Counted from the first letter of the stretch, positions 6,620 through 16,000 are shown. The stretch is DNA of 38,364 bases from Thermodesulfovibrionales bacterium (GCA_044450345.1 JBIOIY010000028.1:1-38364); one strand, 5' to 3'. Notes: generated by a model not told the origin, from the sequence alone. Translations and numbers: made by a program.

Positions 6620-7402
6620 CTACTTGAAAATGTCCACCCAGATCTTTGTGGCTGTCCCGATGATGATCACGGCGAGCAGCCATCTCAGATAGTGTGTCTT
6701 TGTCTTTTTGCCGACGACACTGCCCAACCTTGCAAAAGGCATCGCCCCGACAAGGAGCGCGGCGGCCATATGAAAGGGCACCTGACCGGTGGCGACCTTT
6801 CCGACGAGCCCGGCTGACGAAGAAAACAGCCCGATCGCAAGGGTGCTTCCCAGCGCCACTCTAAGGGGTATCTTCAGGACATACAGCAGGATTGGGATGA
6901 TTATGAAGGCGCCGCCCTGTCCCACCATCCCGATCAGGAAGCCGATCAACACGCCTATGACGATGGCGGTGGGCCTATGGAACGTCACCTTCTCCTCGGT
7001 CATCTCGTCTTTGCCATAACTTCGGGGGATGAGCATCATCACCGAGGCGGTAAAAGCGAGAGCCCCGAATATAAACAGCAGCGGCTTGTCCGGCACCATC
7101 TTCGAGAGAAAGGAACCGGTAAGAGAAGACATAAATAGCGAGAGGCCGAGCGTGAGCACAAGAGGTTTATTAACAAGGTTGTGCTTGTTATAAAAGAACA
7201 GTGCGACAAGTGAAGCGAAAAATCCCTGTATCATGGTGAGGCCTGTGATGCTCTTGACGCCTACGGGATCAAGGCCGAATGCCGGGGGCAGATAAAGAAG
7301 AAGCGGGAACATGAGTATGCCTCCGCCTATTCCTAGCAGGCCTGAAAAAAAACCGACGATGGCGCCTGCAATGATCAAAAGGAGATAGGGCGCTGCGTGC
7401 AC
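6620..7402 (-). CDS. TauE/SafE (TSUP) sulfite-exporter family membrane protein
   Basis: GLLGIGGG and GMVGQGGA repeat motifs, about 8 TMs, 260 aa; GTG starts 1 nt after the selD stop. Confidence 0.9.
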   Translation of the reverse strand: MHAAPYLLLIIAGAIVGFFSGLLGIGGGILMFPLLLYLPPAFGLDPVGVKSITGLTMIQGFFASLVALFFYNKHNLVNKPLVLTLGLSLFMSSLTGSFLSKMVPDKPLLFIFGALAFTASVMMLIPRSYGKDEMTEEKVTFHRPTAIVIGVLIGFLIGMVGQGGAFIIIPILLYVLKIPLRVALGSTLAIGLFSSSAGLVGKVATGQVPFHMAAALLVGAMPFARLGSVVGKKTKTHYLRWLLAVIIIGTATKIWVDIFK

Positions 7403-7403
7403 G

Positions 7404-8450
7404 CTATTTCTCCACGAAGATCTCGGTGTTGTCCCTTACCTCTCCCTCAAGCAGATCCCCGATATAGGCAGCCAGGAGGCCTTCCTTCTGCAGGGTCGCC
7501 ATCAGTTTTTCTTTTCTTTCCCGGGGGACAAAGATGAGGAGTCCTCCCGATGTCTGGGCGTCGCACAGGAGGACCTTTTCATGATCAGGGACGTCGTCCG
7601 CCCATGTGATGTAAGGCGTATACGTCTTGAGGTTACCGAGCGTGCCACCCGGCGCGATATCGATCTCCGCGAGCCTGACGGCCTCATCGAAAAAGGGCAC
7701 GAGGCTCGTACGAATGTGCGCCCTGCACTTGCTTGCAGAAAGCACCTCGTGCAGATGCCCTATAAGGCCGAACCCTGTAATGTCCGTTGCCGTATTTACG
7801 CCGACCTCAATCATTATTTCTCCGGCCCTTTTATTCAATGTCGCCATCGAAAGGGTCAGCTCTTCAATGACCGTGTTGCTGCACATCCCGGCCTTTATAC
7901 CGGTAGATACAACCCCGGTTCCGATCTTCTTCGTGAGTATCAGGGCATCGCCAGGTTTTGCCTTGGAGTTATCGAGGATCTTGTCAGGATGGATCGTACC
8001 CATGACCGCGTAGCCGAATTTCGGTTCCTTGTCCCTGATGGTATGTCCGCCGATAATTGATACTCCGGCCTCGGCCATCTTATCGATCCCTCCCTGCATG
8101 ATTCTTTGAAGCGTGGGGAAAAAGGCTGGCTGGCTCGGGAACATCGCGATATTCAGCGCGACGATAGGTTTGCCGCCCATCGCCCATACGTCCGACAGCG
8201 CATTGGCGGCCGCGATCGCACCGAACCAATAAGGGTCATCGACAATCGGTGTGAAGAAATCGGTAGTCAGTACTACGGCAATATCATCGGTAATCTTGTA
8301 CACGCCGGCGTCATCGGCGTTAGAGGAGTCGACAAGTACATTCTTATCTGTGAGAGCTGGCAGCTGCCCCAGCACCTGGGACAGGTCCGAAGGACTGAAT
8401 TTTGCCGCTCAACCCGCGCAGCTGGAAAGTTCCGTAAGCTTGATAGACAT
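7404..8450 (-). CDS. selD: Selenide, water dikinase (selenophosphate synthetase), selenocysteine-containing (U14, TGA at 8409-8411); 348 aa
   Basis: SD GAGGAGG then ATG 8450; reads MSIKLTELSSCAG-TGA-AAKFSPSDLSQV in frame into the 323-aa ORF; DDAGVY, TTDFFTP, ANALSDVWAMGG, GGHT, TDITGFGL, DAQTSGGLL. Confidence 0.95.
8364..8384 (-). promoter_or_regulatory. Candidate bacterial SECIS hairpin of selD
   Basis: mRNA CUGUCCCAG-GUG-CUGGGGCAG, 9-bp stem with one U-G pair, G-first loop 33 nt after the UGA. Confidence 0.65.
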
Positions 8451-9050: not shown

Positions 9051-10241
9051 TCAATACGGCCAGGCGCTAATGCCGTGTCTGATCGTGTACATGAAGTATT
9101 TCTCGAACCCTAGCTTCAGCCATTTGTAGACGATGCCTTCTTTGAGCTCTGATTCCTGTCTCGGTGGAAGAACCGGGCTGGCCTTCATGTACATCGCCTT
9201 CTTGCCCGTATCCATGAGGCAGAAGACCTCGATCGGAATTTCAGCCGGAGGAGTGGCTCCCGTGATATCAGACGCGATTGTCTTTGCAGCAGTCTTTGCC
9301 ATTCTCACAGTCATATAACCGGTTTTCGGGACTCCTGTGGGCACCGGGGTGGCTTCGGGAGGCGCTATCGCGACTGCGACACCGGCGGAAAAAATGTTCT
9401 TGTGTTTTGTATGCCTGTACCTGCCGTCAACCGGGATGAATCCCCTTGGATTGCCGAGATGTGCCACTGCAGGCACTCCTTTCATAGCAGGGGCGAACAT
9501 CGAAAGCTTAAATGGAAGTTTCGTGCCGTCCTTGAGTTTCGCCTCTCCGGCAGTGAACTCTTCTATGGCGGTGTTTGCGATTATCTTAATGTCGCGTTTT
9601 GCGAACTCATCCTCCATCATCCTTTTTGAGTTCCTTAGCCCGCCGATCCCGAAATGGCCGGCATACGGCTCCGATGTGACAAACGTGATCGGTACCTTGT
9701 GCCTTATCTTCCGCTTGCGAAGTTCGGCGTCTACCTCGAAGACATACTCATAGGGAGGTCCCGAGCAACTCACACCCTGCACCGACCCCACAACGATGCT
9801 GCCCGGCGCTTCAAGGAACCTGCTCCATGCGCTGTTCGCCCTCTCCGCCTGATCGAGGGTGAAGATGCACTCTGTATGTCCTTTTTCGGGGCCGAGGCCC
9901 GGGACTTCCTCAAAGGCGAGGTACGGCCCGGTCGCTATTACCAGAAAGTCGTAAGGAATTTCCTTCGTTCCGGTAATAACCTTCGAACCGTCGGCATCCA
10001 CACCCGTAGCCTTTTCATGAACAAAGGCGATGCCTTTTCTTTCCAGTAACGGCTTCAAAGACAGGGTTATATCGCTCGCCTTCCTCCATCCCATCGCCAG
10101 CCATGGCAAGGAAGGAATGAATACGAATTTGTCGTCGTCGCTTACAACGGTGATCTCAGCCTTTTTCCCGAGAAGTCTTTTAAGCTCAAAGGCAGCAGTC
10201 AACCCGCCGAATGAGCCGCCCAATATAACTATCCTCGCCAT
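9051..10241 (-). CDS. sqr: Sulfide:quinone oxidoreductase-like flavoprotein (SqrA/SqrD-like)
   Basis: GGSFGG FAD fold, FVFIPSLPW, ATGP, ECIFT, SCSGPPYEY, GVPKTGYM, FCLMDTG, C-terminal amphipathic KLGFEKYF. Confidence 0.88.
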   Translation of the reverse strand: MARIVILGGSFGGLTAAFELKRLLGKKAEITVVSDDDKFVFIPSLPWLAMGWRKASDITLSLKPLLERKGIAFVHEKATGVDADGSKVITGTKEIPYDFLVIATGPYLAFEEVPGLGPEKGHTECIFTLDQAERANSAWSRFLEAPGSIVVGSVQGVSCSGPPYEYVFEVDAELRKRKIRHKVPITFVTSEPYAGHFGIGGLRNSKRMMEDEFAKRDIKIIANTAIEEFTAGEAKLKDGTKLPFKLSMFAPAMKGVPAVAHLGNPRGFIPVDGRYRHTKHKNIFSAGVAVAIAPPEATPVPTGVPKTGYMTVRMAKTAAKTIASDITGATPPAEIPIEVFCLMDTGKKAMYMKASPVLPPRQESELKEGIVYKWLKLGFEKYFMYTIRHGISAWPY

Positions 10242-10291: not shown

Positions 10292-10579
10292 CTAAAACAT
10301 CCCTATTACCTTGTCGGTTTCGGTCATTAAATCAACCAGACCGCCGTAATCGATATCCTTTATGTTTTTATTTTCATCGGCGCTCTTCAGTCCTCTTAAT
10401 CTCCTGTCGTCTTCGAGGACATAGGCTGTCCTGACATACCCCAGGTCTTCGAGCGCTTGTTCCTTGAGAAAATAGACCCCGTTCTGTAAGAGAACGATAT
10501 CGGCGGACATATCCCGTGCAATCTTAACGCCCCTTTTGCCTGCCGGTGTGTCAGGCGCGCTTTTTACAATAACTATCAT
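10292..10579 (-). CDS. dsrH: DsrH/TusB-family sulfur-relay subunit
   Basis: KSAP, IVLLQNGVY, YVLEDDRRLRGL, IDYGGLVDL; 95 aa; third gene of an E-F-H triplet. Confidence 0.85.
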   Translation of the reverse strand: MIVIVKSAPDTPAGKRGVKIARDMSADIVLLQNGVYFLKEQALEDLGYVRTAYVLEDDRRLRGLKSADENKNIKDIDYGGLVDLMTETDKVIGMF

Positions 10580-10602: not shown

Positions 10603-10956
10603 TTAAAAAATCATTGTGCTGTCGGCCTGTTTAAGGAGTGCTGCGATAGCTGACTCATTTACTATTTTCACACCTTCAACAATGTCCTCTTTTTTTAGTT
10701 CGTGCTGGATCAGGGACAGATTATCCGCAAAAACCTCTGCACCCATTTCGGCGCAATCCTTTAACGCAGCTTCGAGATTGGTAAAACCAGTGTTCGTGTC
10801 GTCCTGCCCTTTTCTTGCGAGCTGGACGCCGCCGTCAACGAGGATAAGTGATACTGCGATATCTCCTGACATGGCACCTAGGGCATGCCTTACCGCTTCG
10901 GCTGCATTAATGTCGCCGTATGGCGGCTTTCTGAGTATCATTGCAATCTTTCCCAT
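10603..10956 (-). CDS. dsrF: DsrF/TusC-family sulfur-relay subunit
   Basis: ILRKPPYG, EAVRHALG, LVDGGV...KGQ; SD AGGAGG overlaps the TAG of the extended dsrE. Confidence 0.8.
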   Translation of the reverse strand: MGKIAMILRKPPYGDINAAEAVRHALGAMSGDIAVSLILVDGGVQLARKGQDDTNTGFTNLEAALKDCAEMGAEVFADNLSLIQHELKKEDIVEGVKIVNESAIAALLKQADSTMIF

Positions 10957-10965
10957 ATTTTCCTC

Positions 10966-11322
10966 CTATGCTCCTATATTGAGCCAGATATCGCTTTCGC
11001 CCATGGTCTTGAATAACCCTTTGAGCGAGCCGACCTCTACGCCGTCGATATAATCTTCTTGCGCCGCACGGCGAAAGTTGAGACACCCTCCTCAGAGATA
11101 AACCTTCAGACCCTTCTGAATGAGTCCTGAGAATTCCACCTCTGCGTTCGTAATCCCCTTTGCCTTCTGTTTTTTCAAAAAACAATAGATTCCGTCGGCA
11201 GAAGCGATCAGGTTGACGGTGTGCTTCCTGTTTAAGGCCGCGTCTGCGATCTTGATCGTAGAGAGGGTGTTTTCATAAGAGTAGGGTGACGTCGATAAAA
11301 AAAGCGTGATGTTTTTTCCCAT
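10966..11322 (-). CDS. dsrE: DsrE/TusD-family sulfurtransferase, selenocysteine-containing (U77-x-x-C80, TGA at 11092-11094); 118 aa
   Basis: ATG 11322 after AGGAGGAG; STSPYS, SADGIY; reading through the TGA gives LKVYL-U-GGCLNFRRAAQEDYIDGVEVGSLKGLFKTMGESDIWLNIGA, completing the fold and ending 9 nt before dsrF. Confidence 0.9.
11058..11077 (-). promoter_or_regulatory. Candidate bacterial SECIS hairpin of dsrE
   Basis: mRNA CUU-U-CGCC-GUGC-GGCG-C-AAG; G-first loop 22 nt after the UGA. Confidence 0.65.
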
Positions 11323-11392
11323 AATCTCCTCCTGCATACTTATAACGTTACTGTTTTGGAGTCATTTGAACAAATAACAATGCCTGTATTCA

Positions 11393-11473
11393 TCAATTCC
11401 TCCTAACGCCCGGATATTTGACTTTCTTTGTTACCGGGCAACAGGCGGGTGCAGGCAATTCGTCTTACAGCAC
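11393..11473 (-). pseudogene. Collapsed remnant of a second ArsR gene (only the start and the C-terminal tail remain)
   Basis: SD GGAGG, GTG CTG TAA, then in frame DELPAPACCPVTKKVKYPGVRRN-stop; matches the tail ETLPAPACCPVTKKGTYPGTRTR of the ArsR at 8487-8828. Confidence 0.8.
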
Positions 11474-11497: not shown

Positions 11498-11533
11498 ATA
11501 TAAAGATATACCGATATTTGAATGTATTGTCAA
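11498..11533 (-). promoter_or_regulatory. Putative sigma70 promoter of the dsrEFH-sqr unit, overlapped by an ArsR-type AT-rich imperfect palindrome
   Basis: TTGACA (11528-11533), 17 nt, TATATC; overlapped by ATATAAAGATATACCGATAT (11498-11517). Confidence 0.55.
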
Positions 11534-11615: not shown

Positions 11616-11894
11616 ATGGAAGCTGCACGGGCGCATCTGTTCATCCGGGGGAGGGTCCAGGGAGTCTTCTACAGGGGCTTTACAAGAAATGTGGCGGTGA
11701 AGCTGGGCCTCAACGGGTGGGTGAAAAACCTTTATGACGGTCGTGTTGAAGCGGTATTTGAAGGCGACAGGACACTGATCGAGCAGGCTGTTCAGCATTG
11801 CAGGGTAGGCCCTCCAGGCGCATATGTCCAGGATATTGAGGTCGTCTGGGAAGGGTATTCAGGGCAGGAGAAAGGCTTCGAGATAAAATATTAG
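11616..11894 (+). CDS. acyP: Acylphosphatase
   Basis: GRVQGVFYR, GWVKNLYDGRVEAVFEG, GPP; start reassigned to ATG 11616, 7 nt after TGcTATAAT. Confidence 0.95.
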   Translation: MEAARAHLFIRGRVQGVFYRGFTRNVAVKLGLNGWVKNLYDGRVEAVFEGDRTLIEQAVQHCRVGPPGAYVQDIEVVWEGYSGQEKGFEIKY

Positions 11895-12021: not shown

Positions 12022-12072
12022 GTCCATTATCATTTGCGGACAATGCCCCGGCCTTCTATGAAAATATTGACT

Positions 12073-13047
12073 ATGATCAACCGGCTTGAAAAAAAAGTCA
12101 TGTCAGGCGGCGATGTTTCCTGCGAGGAAGCGGTATTTATATCTTCGATTTCCGCCGAAGGGGTACTCGATCTGTTCGCTGCGGCAAACAGGATCAGGAG
12201 CCGTTTTCGCGGAAATATCATAGACATCTGCGCTATTGTAAATGCAAAGTCCGGAGGGTGTACCGAGGACTGCGCTTACTGCGCACAGTCCGCCAGGAGT
12301 TCTTCCGATACGCCGGTGTTTCCCCTCGTTGATAAACGTGCAGTCCTCGAAAAGGCAGCGGAGGCAAAACAGGGAGGCGCGGCACGCTTCTGCATCGTGA
12401 CAAGCGGGCGGAAAGCATCCGATGCGGATATACCAAAAATAGCGGAAATGATTTCCGAAGTCAGGGCAGCCGGGCTTCTGCCGTGCGCCACCCTCGGGCT
12501 TCTCGGGAAAGAGGAATTGTTTCTTTTGAAAGAGGCCGGTCTTGAGCGATTTCATCATAACCTTGAGACATCCGAGAGATTTTTTCCGGAGATATGCACT
12601 ACGCATACTTACAACGACAAGATACAGACGATTGCGGCGGCGAAGTCCGCGGGACTCTCTTTATGTTCGGGCGGCATCTTCGGACTCGGAGAGACATGGG
12701 AGGACAGGATCGACATGGGAATGGCGCTCAGAGAGATCGGTCCCGACTCCGTTCCCCTCAATTTTCTGATACCGATCAGGGGCTCCAGACTAGGATCGAG
12801 AAATCAACTCAGACCCCTCGAGGCACTAAAAATAATAAGCCTCTTCAGGTTCCTTCTTCCGGGCAAAGAGATCCGGGTCTGCGGGGGACGTGTGCAGACT
12901 CTCGGCGAATTAAATTCATTTATATTCTTTGCCGGCGCTGACGGCCTGCTCTCTGGAAATTACCTGACGACATCGGGCAGAAGCTTTAAGGATGACTTGA
13001 GACTTGTCGGAGAGCAGGGGCTTAAGGTATCCCGCATTACTGCGTAG
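12073..13047 (+). CDS. bioB: Biotin synthase (radical SAM)
   Basis: NAKSGGCTEDCAYCAQS, FCIVTSG, HHNLET, CSGGIFGLGE, SVPLNFL, NYLTT; start uncertain (12058 or 12073). Confidence 0.95.
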   Translation: MINRLEKKVMSGGDVSCEEAVFISSISAEGVLDLFAAANRIRSRFRGNIIDICAIVNAKSGGCTEDCAYCAQSARSSSDTPVFPLVDKRAVLEKAAEAKQGGAARFCIVTSGRKASDADIPKIAEMISEVRAAGLLPCATLGLLGKEELFLLKEAGLERFHHNLETSERFFPEICTTHTYNDKIQTIAAAKSAGLSLCSGGIFGLGETWEDRIDMGMALREIGPDSVPLNFLIPIRGSRLGSRNQLRPLEALKIISLFRFLLPGKEIRVCGGRVQTLGELNSFIFFAGADGLLSGNYLTTSGRSFKDDLRLVGEQGLKVSRITA

Positions 13048-13053
13048 GCAGCT

Positions 13054-13884
13054 ATGGAGGACAGGATGGTTAGCATTCGTATGAGGGCGTCCAGGCGGGT
13101 CACAGGGAAGAACTGCAATACATCTTCAGACCAGCACATATCCGGCGCCGAGGGAATATTCGAACGGAGTTCGACTGCCTCAGTCATTGAAGAATATATC
13201 CTTAGGGCGATGGCCCATCCGCGAGGCAGGCCGGACCGGATCGAGATTACGCTGGAGGGGATCAGAGCAAGGCCGAAAAAAATACGGTCACTCCCGATAA
13301 GGACAGTAGCATGCGGGTCAACACAAGCTTCGCAGCGCCACATAAAGAAAATTCTTGTCTCGGCGGGGGTAACGTATGCAGCAATAGACGAGGCGCTAAA
13401 AGTAGTCTACGGCGAGAGGACTATGCGCGGCGCTTCTGTCATATGTGCCGGATCAGGGAGAAGGATTGAACCTGACAGGGAAAGGGGGGTTCGTGCTTCG
13501 AGACTAGGGATCAGCCGGGCTGCGGGCCAGGCACTCAGCCGCGAACTGATCAGAGAAAGGATCAATTCCGAAACCGTGCGGGAGGCCGTGGTCCTTGCAT
13601 CGAAGGTTGCTTCCTGCGAACAGGTGATCGCGGAGCTCTGTGTTTCGGACGATCCTGATTACACCACAGGCTATGTTTCTTCAAAAAAGTTCGGCTACGT
13701 GAGGATACCACATATAAAGAGAAAGGGGGACCGGAGGGGAGGAAGGGTCTTTTTCATGAGAGACGACGCAGACCTGAGCGCGGCGATCTCCTTTCTCGAG
13801 AAGACGCCTGTGCTCGTCGACAAGGTATCGGAATGTCTCGGTGTCTTATCTGTCAATGAAGTCATTGGTCATTGTCATATATAA
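13054..13884 (+). CDS. bioW: 6-carboxyhexanoate (pimelate)-CoA ligase
   Basis: SIRMRAS, HISGAE, ELCVSDDPDYTTGYV, GYVRIPHIK, GGRVFF; directly after bioB. Confidence 0.93.
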   Translation: MEDRMVSIRMRASRRVTGKNCNTSSDQHISGAEGIFERSSTASVIEEYILRAMAHPRGRPDRIEITLEGIRARPKKIRSLPIRTVACGSTQASQRHIKKILVSAGVTYAAIDEALKVVYGERTMRGASVICAGSGRRIEPDRERGVRASRLGISRAAGQALSRELIRERINSETVREAVVLASKVASCEQVIAELCVSDDPDYTTGYVSSKKFGYVRIPHIKRKGDRRGGRVFFMRDDADLSAAISFLEKTPVLVDKVSECLGVLSVNEVIGHCHI

Positions 13885-14752
13885 TCCCGCAGCAAGAAGG
13901 GCATCGGAAGGAAAGATCGCCCGTGCCACGGCGTACCTTGAGGAAAAGGGCTTTGCCGTAGAACTGCTCCGCACTGAAACGGCCGGCCACGCCAGGCAAC
14001 TTGCGGCCGATGCCCTGAAGAGGAACCCGCGTCTTATAATAGCAGCCGGGGGCGACGGTACTGTCAATGAGGTGATCAACGGCATTGTGCGGACTGATAC
14101 CCCGCTTGGGGTACTTCCCCTGGGGACGACGAATGTTTTGGCCAAGGAACTCGATATTCCCGAAGATATTTGCGGCGCGCTGGAAACCGCGGTGACATCG
14201 AGCCCCAAAAAGGTGTCCCTCGGTATGATAGAAACCGGAAGCGGGAAAGATCTTGCAGCGAGGTTCTTTTGTCTGATGGCGGGCATAGGACTTGACGGCA
14301 AGACCGTTTATGATGTGAATGCAGCCGCAAAAAAGATATCGGGCAAGGCAGCATACATCCTTAGCGGAATACACAATATTATGGGATATTCTCCGGAGAG
14401 ACTCTCCTTCATAATAGACGGGAAAGAGTATACCGGGTATTCAGCGGTCATCGGCAAGGCGGCTAAGTACGGCGGACACTTCAAGGTGACGCCGGATGCG
14501 AGCCTCCTGGACCCTTCCCTGTTCGTATGCCTGTTTAAGGGCGGCCGCCGCCGCGATTTATTGAGATATGCCGTCGGGGTCATCAGGGGGAAACATCTGG
14601 CTTACGAAGATGTGATTTATCTCAGAGCAATGGAGATCGAGGTACGGGGGAATGCCCATATACAGATAGACGGAGATTATCTGGGTCTCACGCCGGCCAA
14701 GGTTTCGACAGCGAGAGACGCGCTTATGTTGGTGTATGGGGGCCGACGATGA
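13856..14752 (+). CDS. Diacylglycerol/lipid kinase family protein (YegS/DagK)
   Basis: IYNPAA, AGGDGTVNEVING, PLGTTNVLA, QIDGD. Confidence 0.92.
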   Translation: MKSLVIVIYNPAARRASEGKIARATAYLEEKGFAVELLRTETAGHARQLAADALKRNPRLIIAAGGDGTVNEVINGIVRTDTPLGVLPLGTTNVLAKELDIPEDICGALETAVTSSPKKVSLGMIETGSGKDLAARFFCLMAGIGLDGKTVYDVNAAAKKISGKAAYILSGIHNIMGYSPERLSFIIDGKEYTGYSAVIGKAAKYGGHFKVTPDASLLDPSLFVCLFKGGRRRDLLRYAVGVIRGKHLAYEDVIYLRAMEIEVRGNAHIQIDGDYLGLTPAKVSTARDALMLVYGGRR

Positions 14753-15812
14753 CACCACCCCCGATCACGGTCTCTCCTACGTAAAAGACCGCACTCTGTC
14801 CGGGAGCGGGGGCCCACTGAGGCTCATCGAAAAAAACCTTTGCCTGTGTGCCGAAGACATTAACTTCTGCCGGTCTGTCCTCCATCATTGAGCGCACCTT
14901 CACTGTAGCCTTGAAAGAACTCCCGGAGGGGGGGAATAACCAATTGAGATCAGTGACAATAATCTCTTCCCTCATCGCGTCTTCCTGCGAACCGACACGG
15001 ACGATATTGTTTGCAGTATCTATGTCCGTTACATAATATGGTCTGGGAGAGGGTAGTCTCAGCCCTTTTCTCTGTCCGATGGTATAACGGCATATTCCCT
15101 TATGGGTACCCAGCTCCCGGCCTGTCTTGTCTATGATGGGCCCCGGTCTGCAAGAAGAGGGCGACAGGTTTTCAATGAACCCGGAGTAATTCTCGTCTCC
15201 GATAAAACAAATCTCCTGGCTCTCCGGCCTATCGGCGGCCGGCAGCAGCAGGGAACGTGCAATATCTCTGACGTCAGTCTTTCTGAGTCCACCGAGAGGC
15301 AAGACCAGCCTTTCCAGTTCCTCCGGTCTTAACAAGTAGAGGACATAGGACTGGTCTTTTTTGGGGTCTACGCCTTTTTTCAAAGAGAATCTTTCATTTT
15401 GCGGCCAGACAGGGATTCGTTTTTCTACCCTCGCGTAATGGCCGGTAGCTATATATTCAGCGCCTCTTTTTCTTGCCTCTTCGAGAAGAAAGGGGAACTT
15501 GATGTGTCGATTGCACAGGATGCAGGGGTTCGGCGTCAAGCCGCTTTTGTATGCCTCAACAAACGGCTCGATCACCTTTTCAATGAATGTCTCCCTCACG
15601 TCTATCGACGAATGCGGTATGCCGAGGATATCGGCCGTCTTTGATGCGCCGTCGGTCGCCTCCAGTGAACAGCATGCGGCAGAGTTGGACCTGTTTCTGG
15701 CCTCCCAGAGGATGAAACTGACCCCCTCGACCTCGAACCCCTGTTCCTGGAGAAGATACGCGGTGACGCTTGAATCGACCCCGCCGCTCATTCCGACAAT
15801 TACTTTGCCCAT
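14724..15812 (-). CDS. mnmA: tRNA 2-thiouridine(34) synthase
   Basis: MSGGVDSS PP-loop, TPNPCILCN, ATGHYA, KDQSY, ESQEICF, TIGQRKGL, PGQSAVFY; start reassigned to ATG 15812. Confidence 0.97.
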   Translation of the reverse strand: MGKVIVGMSGGVDSSVTAYLLQEQGFEVEGVSFILWEARNRSNSAACCSLEATDGASKTADILGIPHSSIDVRETFIEKVIEPFVEAYKSGLTPNPCILCNRHIKFPFLLEEARKRGAEYIATGHYARVEKRIPVWPQNERFSLKKGVDPKKDQSYVLYLLRPEELERLVLPLGGLRKTDVRDIARSLLLPAADRPESQEICFIGDENYSGFIENLSPSSCRPGPIIDKTGRELGTHKGICRYTIGQRKGLRLPSPRPYYVTDIDTANNIVRVGSQEDAMREEIIVTDLNWLFPPSGSSFKATVKVRSMMEDRPAEVNVFGTQAKVFFDEPQWAPAPGQSAVFYVGETVIGGGVIVGPHTPT

Positions 15813-16000
15813 GTTTTTACTATAACAGAAAGGTGCGTGCCTTTTTTGTAACGGCGCTAGGTGATTTTTGGCCCTCGCTTGCGGGAATGGCAAACTGTTG
15901 CCGACTATGACGTTACCTTGGGTTCGCAATAGGCAAATAGCAAAATCCGGTTGTTTGTAATATAATAATATCTTATCTTTACCTTGAAAAAATATTTTAA

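Follow-up and report, generated by a model that had tools for sequence, protein, structure and literature searches.

Organization of the dsrE locus

The window, that is the whole stretch of 38,364 nt from a Thermodesulfovibrionales bacterium that was analysed, carries a dsrE-like gene interrupted by an in-frame TGA, followed by genes for two related small proteins and a flavoprotein. All genes of the dsrE neighbourhood discussed below are on the minus strand, and the features are listed in that direction.

11506-11533, minus strand: TTGACA promoter overlapped by a palindrome of the ArsR operator type, lying some 184 nt upstream of dsrE and matching the consensus of relatives
11396-11464, minus strand: 3'-terminal remnant of a deleted arsR, sharing 16 of 21 residues with the intact ArsR tail (E 2e-10)
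10966-11322, minus strand: dsrE-like gene of a predicted selenoprotein, 118 codons and a TAG stop, assigned from its PF02635 match and dN/dS
11092-11094, minus strand: in-frame TGA, codon 77 and first position of U-G-G-C, with TGA in relatives and Cys in homologues
11083-11085, minus strand: Cys80 codon, second position of UxxC, C in 51 of 51 full-length Sec forms
11058-11077, minus strand: predicted SECIS hairpin, its 7-pair stem beginning 14 nt past the UGA and its 6-nt loop reading CGUGCG
10603-10956, minus strand: dsrF/tusC-like gene, 117 aa, PF02635 at 61.8 bits, no Cys at the active-site column
10292-10579, minus strand: dsrH/tusB-like gene, 95 aa, PF04077 at 40.1 bits, no Cys
9051-10241, minus strand: sulfide:quinone reductase (SQR), 396 aa, matching solved SQRs, with C125, C159 and C341
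8487-8828, minus strand: regulator gene of the arsR family, intact, whose product conserves the four Cys C32, C70, C98 and C99
7404-8450, minus strand: selD, itself a predicted selenoprotein, TIGR00476 at 364 bits, TGA at 8409-8411 in SSCAGUAAK
6620-7402, minus strand: TauE/SafE-family permease directly after selD, PF01925 at 145.2 bits, full length, no internal stop

The dsrE frame opens at ATG 11322, with an AGGAGG seven bases upstream, and reaches TAG 10966-10968 after 118 residues when the TGA is read through, the residues around codon 77 being VYL-U-GGCLNFR. The gene structure given in a preliminary description of this DNA was borne out in each particular. The open reading frame list ends the DsrE-like frame at TGA 11092-11094, as seen on the sequence itself; translation gave 41 further codons before the TAG; and counting from the ATG placed the TGA at codon 77 with Cys80 retained. 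The dsrF ATG (10956) lies 9 nt past the dsrE TAG, which is overlapped by the AGGAGG of dsrF, and the translated DsrH-like product (10292-10579) is without any Cys.

The read-through product matched the Pfam family PF02635 (DsrE/DsrF-like) with 53.1 bits against a cut-off of 22.7, residues 3-112 aligning to profile positions 1-112 of 116. Because the match spans residues 3-112, the 41 codons past the TGA complete the DsrE domain. Apart from these genes, an acylphosphatase gene (11616-11894) was found divergent from dsrE, and an MnmA-type tRNA thiouridylase (tRNA_Me_trans domains), bioB and bioW are nearby, in the window at 14724-15929 (minus strand) and 12034-13884 (plus strand).

Conservation of the TGA and of the downstream codons

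Fifty-four related loci were taken from species-representative genomes titled Nitrospirota, Thermodesulfovibrionales, Ca. Sulfobium or similar, with one titled 'uncultured bacterium'. A TGA at the equivalent of codon 77 was found in all 55 sequences (the window and the 54 loci). Twenty more distant loci were added for covariation; four of them were Cys forms and 16 were Sec-type loci, with TGA at the same codon in 16 of 16. The question raised in the preliminary description, whether close relatives conserve the TGA, was thus answered by 71 of 71 sequences read at the DNA level, and both the TGA and an open, conserved tail were found to persist in relatives from 86% to about 41% protein identity.

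Across the phylum, DsrE matches at E ≤ 1e-10 were obtained in 116 of 401 sampled genomes. An in-frame TGA occurred at 120 of the 125 DsrE places, in 112 of the 116 matching genomes (119 places with one and one place with two), a figure that counts the presence of an in-frame TGA, its position having been verified for the 71 sequences read. Places with no stop were Cys forms in four genomes of a single family, which use TGC or TGT at the Sec codon, and one further place was a fragment ending before the site.

The ratio dN/dS of dsrE had a mean of 0.05 over codons 2-76 compared to 0.085 over codons 89-116, as estimated from 300 random pairs among 51 full-length sequences of which those with 0 < dS < 5 were kept (97 and 132 pairs, respectively). 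A ratio of about 0.08 indicates that the codons after the TGA are under purifying selection and that the tail is as much protein as the head. Cys80 was nearly invariant in the homologue alignment. In that alignment, where Sec codons are shown as C, Cys was invariant in the Sec column. Distant full-length homologues nearly all had C-G-x-C at the UGGC site, in agreement with the preliminary suggestion that Cys homologues would fall on the TGA column.

A word-indexed protein search returned 426 relatives, of which 120 were listed. Most of the listed matches were 76 aa long, the truncated annotation that had been anticipated, and those with a name bore the label Nitrospirota/Nitrospirae or Thermodesulfovibrionales. 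One full-length relative of 114 aa among the matches listed has Cys at the Sec column.

From these findings TGA 11092-11094 very probably encodes selenocysteine at the active site, in line with the preliminary description. Sequencing error is an unlikely source of the TGA: a contig from an independent public run spans the codon, and of its 39 DNA differences over 1151 nt compared, none of the 36 that were listed falls at 11092-11094. The public runs listed for this DNA included none of RNA. A genetic code with TGA as a sense codon was excluded, because TGA serves as an ordinary stop elsewhere, namely for sqr and for 22 of 54 dsrE genes. The final stops of dsrE, determinable in 54 of the 55 sequences with one lost to a contig end, were TAG in 27, TGA in 22 and TAA in 5.

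A conserved hairpin downstream of the TGA

In the preliminary description a search for a bacterial SECIS element had been proposed. When the window was folded alone, no significant structure was obtained (z -0.4 to 0.03), and the hairpin became clear only by comparison across relatives. It begins at one and the same distance from the UGA, 14 nt, in all 71 Sec sequences, and selection at the RNA level was evident across these forms. In the 51 full-length sequences, the entropy of synonymous codons collapsed at dsrE codons 82-88, to 0 at R84 (CGC in 51 of 51) and A87 (GCG in 50 of 50) and to 0.14 at R85 (CGT in 49 of 50), compared to 1.5-2.1 bits at most other fourfold and sixfold codons on both sides of the TGA.

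The hairpin was almost invariant inside the window's own clade, and the 16 distant Sec loci had a hairpin of different sequence at the same spacing. Pairing of the stem over the 71 Sec forms was found in 91.8% of 490 cells compared to 41-63% with the partner slid. Compensatory changes occurred in four of the seven stem pairs, and the number of cells changed on both sides (30) was reached by 0 of 500 shuffles, a statistic that is inflated by the relatedness of the sequences. Most of the covariation stemmed from the 16 more distant loci. The stem of the window itself has one U.C mismatch. Loop positions 2 and 3 (G29 and T30, that is GU) were at least 90% conserved and the loops read NGUNNN in most sequences. 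In the most distant clade (41-46% protein identity) the loop was GGUCUU, with GGUCUG in one sequence; the GGUCUU loop is presumably close to the type of E. coli fdhF.

Fold energies were -6.1 to -12.1 kcal/mol in 16 Sec forms and 0 to -1.7 kcal/mol in the four Cys forms, and no hairpin was present at the same place in any of these four. Taken together, the comparison points to the hairpin at 11058-11077 as a bacterial SECIS element and predicted target of SelB. An Rfam scan of 10900-11400 gave three matches only, at chance level and far under the gathering scores.

Selenocysteine decoding in the host genome

The proposal of a selenoprotein had been made to depend on the host having selA, selB and tRNA-Sec. 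In the genome of the window (86 contigs, 91% complete) all three were found together with selD: selA scored 608.7 bits, selB 382.4 bits and tRNA-Sec 70.5 bits, with the anticodon TCA assigned by ARAGORN. The selD gene of the window has its Sec at codon 14; the open reading frame list gives only its part from a GTG at 8375, 323 aa long. One TGA was found in most of the selD places listed for the phylum.

Of the 116 genomes matched by DsrE, 108 also gave a selD match (E ≤ 1e-40); of the eight genomes without one, seven are 63-79% complete, and the eighth (G142, 99% complete) has a TGA-form dsrE and no selD at this threshold. In one genus of the same order (family f6, genus g13), with genomes of 1.5-2.0 Mb, a DsrE match was found in 0 of 14 genomes and selD in 14 of 14, with one TGA in every selD place listed. 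The operon is therefore not universal among relatives that use selenocysteine.

Family placement of the E, F and H proteins

The best solved match of the family profile was E. coli YchN (1jx7; E 1.2e-18, full length), followed by A. vinosum DsrE (2hy5_A, E 4.9e-12) and E. coli TusD (2d1p_A, E 1.2e-07). Counted along the profile alignment, the Sec column falls on Cys78 of 2hy5_A, the equivalence that had been proposed at the outset, and on the matching Cys of 2d1p_A. In A. vinosum, DsrE Cys78 persulfurates DsrC and DsrH Cys20 is essential in vivo (PMC3397948).

The preliminary description had spoken of a complete EFH complex. The E-F-H gene order that would underlie it is conserved, but the trio departs from canonical DsrEFH. 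Among NCBIfam matches at E ≤ 0.01, no TusD or DsrE equivalog was found for the E protein; the F protein scored 41.8 bits with TusC, below the cut-off of 94.15, and the H protein 43.8 bits with TusB, below the cut-off of 49.2. Furthermore, no alignment column of DsrH reached Cys in 30% of 66 orthologues. Because the NCBIfam cut-offs were missed, DsrH is without Cys20 and the closest solved relative is YchN, the trio is best classed by its sequences as DsrEFH-like and not as canonical DsrEFH. Assembly of E, F and H into a complex would be expected from the gene order and its conservation.

The trio resembles A. vinosum DsrEFH (2hy5) and E. coli TusBCD (2d1p) in having three small adjacent genes in E-F-H order, with a nucleophile, in the Cys78 column, only in the E subunit. 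It differs from them in having Sec for Cys and an extra Cys three residues on, in a DsrH without Cys20, in scores under the NCBIfam equivalog cut-offs for all three proteins, and in being unlinked to dsrAB/dsrC or tRNA thiolation genes. YchN, with a CxxC that aligns with the UxxC, differs in that it stands as a single gene, and its entry is made up of six identical chains, whereas F- and H-like partners share the operon here.

Conservation of the operon

The genes dsrF and dsrH followed dsrE in 52 of the 54 loci; the other two (L049 and L068) break off about 90 nt beyond dsrE or within it. Of the 54 loci, 45 had an SQR and 48 an ArsR, with arsR usually directly upstream, and several of the misses are at locus ends. 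In the 20 more distant loci, dsrF followed dsrE in 20 and dsrH was present in 18. The loci of Cys forms keep the operon context, with a more distant SQR-like gene. By these counts, an operon of dsrE(Sec), dsrF-like, dsrH-like and sqr is conserved in Nitrospirota.

The flavoprotein aligned over nearly its full length with the A. ferrooxidans SQR (3t2y, E 1.2e-91) and with 3hyv (E 1.1e-90), which we take to be the Aquifex SQR. Its C125, C159 and C341 were conserved in 48-50 of 50 orthologues and are presumably the catalytic Cys of solved SQRs. The alignments identify the flavoprotein as a true sulfide:quinone reductase. A second Sec at the C-terminus of SQR, where the TGA is followed by KKACEK, was considered and rejected; the stops of relatives were TGA in 24, TAA in 11 and TAG in 4, with no conserved extension.

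Genes for TauE-like permeases adjoined the dsrE locus in 13 of 54 loci and in 1 of the 20 distant loci. In some genome bins the entire dsrE(Sec)-F-H locus occurred twice or three times, each time on another contig (L036/L039/L048, L057/L059 and L043/L054), and these copies may be true paralogues or strain mixtures.

Promoter, operator and the arsR remnant

In relatives, the region upstream of arsR contains a TTGACA promoter overlapped by the palindrome ATGCAAATAT-N4-ATATTTGCAT. In the window this consensus had a single match, at 11506-11533 with 0 mismatches, and 0 of 100 shuffles matched. The remnant of arsR, which includes PAPACCPVTKK and corresponds to the last 21 codons, sits between this conserved operator and dsrE. 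The region 11396-11473 (minus strand) reads as a start-like GTG, then CTG TAA, and then the 21-codon ArsR tail. This arrangement indicates that an ancestral arsR upstream of dsrE was deleted internally.

The sole intact arsR lies 2.5 kb downstream, after sqr, where it heads selD(Sec)-tauE. Nothing convincing was found in a search for a shared operator upstream of this gene (8828), since the pattern matches only at 11506-11533 in the window, and the only 9-mer common to the upstream regions of this arsR and of dsrE lies in the arsR remnant, outside the operator. Cys32, 70, 98 and 99 of ArsR were conserved in 59-60 of 60 sequences. The protein scored 42 bits with NCBIfam BigR, missing the cut-off of 155, and is a general member of ArsR/SmtB (68 bits versus 55). 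As read from the alignment, C32 does not fall on the single Cys that 6o8k shows within the aligned part, and the Cys positions differ from those of the aligned solved chains. On these features the ArsR of the window would not be grouped with the persulfide-sensing regulators of BigR/SqrR type.

Proposed function and alternative explanations

The best explanation for the whole locus, to which we give a probability of roughly 0.8, is that dsrE encodes the Sec77-containing subunit of an SQR-linked, ArsR-controlled, DsrEFH-like sulfur carrier operon. SelB and tRNA-Sec would decode TGA 11092-11094 with the help of the hairpin at 11058-11077. The nucleophile of the 118-residue DsrE would then be Sec77, at the position of Cys78 of DsrE/TusD, followed by Cys80 (UGGC). 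An ArsR-family repressor would control the operon promoter and might be released by reactive sulfur species or by a metalloid. SQR would oxidise sulfide to sulfane sulfur, which the DsrEFH-like carrier could take up on Sec77 as a selenenyl-persulfide, with Cys80 as the resolving partner, and hand to an acceptor, candidates being DsrC, a TusA-type protein and sulfite. Since the NCBIfam cut-offs were missed and DsrH is without the Cys20 needed in A. vinosum, the DsrEFH-like mechanism is drawn by analogy.

The module might thus act like repressor-controlled operons that handle sulfide and persulfide, with a selenium nucleophile in the carrier. Such operons are SqrR-sqr, BigR-blh and CstR-cst with tauE. 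They share with the locus described here an ArsR-type or similar repressor, SQR, a sulfur carrier, sometimes a TauE permease, and an operator that overlaps the promoter. In contrast to them, the operon of the window showed neither a persulfide dioxygenase nor a rhodanese, its carrier is a DsrEFH-like trio with Sec, and its ArsR, which missed the BigR cut-off, has a different Cys pattern (C32, C70, C98-C99). The sulfur-only explanation also leaves unexplained the selD gene that is nearby in some genomes.

That gene is central to a second explanation, in which the same selenoprotein is part of a DsrE(Sec)FH-like carrier that, together with the flavoprotein and TauE, traffics or detoxifies selenium and delivers it to SelD. 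The system would play a part comparable to that of the SelD-associated YedE/YedF pair, and selenium or sulfur bound to the protein at Sec-x-x-Cys would feed or buffer selenophosphate synthesis in one ArsR-type regulon. In the window, selD(Sec)-tauE comes directly after the operon, and the deleted arsR before dsrE and the intact arsR before selD share a tail that is 76% identical. In 5 of the 54 loci selD was no more than 3 kb away from dsrE, with several arrangements of the genes. Among the 116 matching genomes, at least 12 had it no farther than 10 kb off and sharing contig and strand with dsrE, a lower bound from the selD places listed. In YedF, the DsrE-like domain carries CGxC and is linked to SelD (PMC5322559), and the flavoprotein weakly matches TIGR03169, 'Nterm_to_SelD' (63.5 bits, cut-off 310). 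However, no selD was found within the locus DNA in 49 of the 54 loci or in any of the 20 distant loci. The flavoprotein is clearly an SQR (E 1e-91), and such enzymes oxidise what they act on, but the selenide that SelD uses is reduced. Co-regulation with the selenium supply may be reason enough for two selenoprotein genes to cluster, and the co-occurrence of selD (108 of 116) does not discriminate, as it is needed for any selenoprotein. Because the flavoprotein is plainly SQR and most loci have no selD nearby, a role in selenium delivery is considered unlikely. If true, it would answer the long-open question of how selenium is delivered to bacterial SelD, and the recurring selD(Sec)/tauE neighbourhood is a modest, testable lead on selenium trafficking.

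Slightly less probable still is that the trio serves as a canonical DsrEFH, passing sulfur to DsrC for DsrAB and so marking a Dsr pathway that is oxidative or reversible. In its favour, dsrA (540.6 bits) with a dsrB-like match beside it and dsrC (160.8 bits) occur in the genome, and Sec77 aligns with the DsrE Cys78 that persulfurates DsrC (PMC3397948). But these dsr genes are on contig C6 and the trio on contig C28, where the conserved neighbours are arsR and sqr and not dsr genes, and the missed equivalog cut-offs, the absence of Cys from DsrH and the closeness to YchN all count against it. DsrC is a possible acceptor for the sulfur carrier preferred here, although it is unlinked to the operon.

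Finally, that the TGA is a genuine stop in a truncated or decaying gene, an assembly error or the boundary of two small genes is hardly credible: gene callers and public databases do give a 76-aa product, and a separate C-terminal frame of 38 aa is listed in relatives with Met at position 81 (P0142 and P0172), but the TGA and the conserved downstream frame persist from 86% to about 41% protein identity, dN/dS downstream is 0.085, and the window has Leu, not Met, at position 81 with no ribosome-binding site there.

Relation to known selenoproteins and implications for annotation

A selenoprotein family with UxxC, named 'DsrE-like protein' (PF02635), was predicted in the Sargasso Sea metagenome (PMC1088965), and a DsrE-like selenoprotein is also given for Desulfovibrio vulgaris (PMC1794560). 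This type of selenoprotein has accordingly been catalogued in print since 2005-2006, and it is still marked uncharacterised in a 2026 review (PMC13188914). The gene in the window belongs to it: its product matches PF02635 above the gathering score, has UGA at the first position of CxxC and has Cys homologues, and it shares with the known members Sec in place of the first Cys of UxxC and a SECIS element, here predicted, directly downstream. Beyond what is published of the DsrE-like selenoproteins, it is the first gene of a DsrE-F-H-like trio with SQR and an ArsR-type promoter, and this form of DsrE(Sec) is widespread in Nitrospirota, as seen in the matches in 116 of 401 genomes. A search for literature joining selenocysteine with DsrEFH, TusD or Nitrospirota dsrE found none beyond general selenoproteome surveys.

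The main practical value of these findings is the correction of annotation. A 2024 survey stated that most Thermodesulfovibrionia "possess dsrFH, but no dsrE" (PMC11033732), which we attribute to gene callers cutting dsrE at the Sec codon. In genomic work DsrEFH commonly serves to mark oxidative sulfur metabolism, and marker-based metabolic calls for Thermodesulfovibrionia, a common lineage of groundwater, peat and sediment, need correcting. The operon offers what would be a natural Sec-for-Cys persulfide carrier coupled to SQR, and the natural Cys forms in one family of the same phylum provide a clean system for asking what selenium adds to sulfur transfer.

Among the protein matches, the members of four 50%-identity clusters (P0216, P0156, P0205 and P0140) share 34-47% identity with the query. 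Their last residue is the one just before the Sec column (...VHL, ...VDL), and they may be Sec forms in other lineages.
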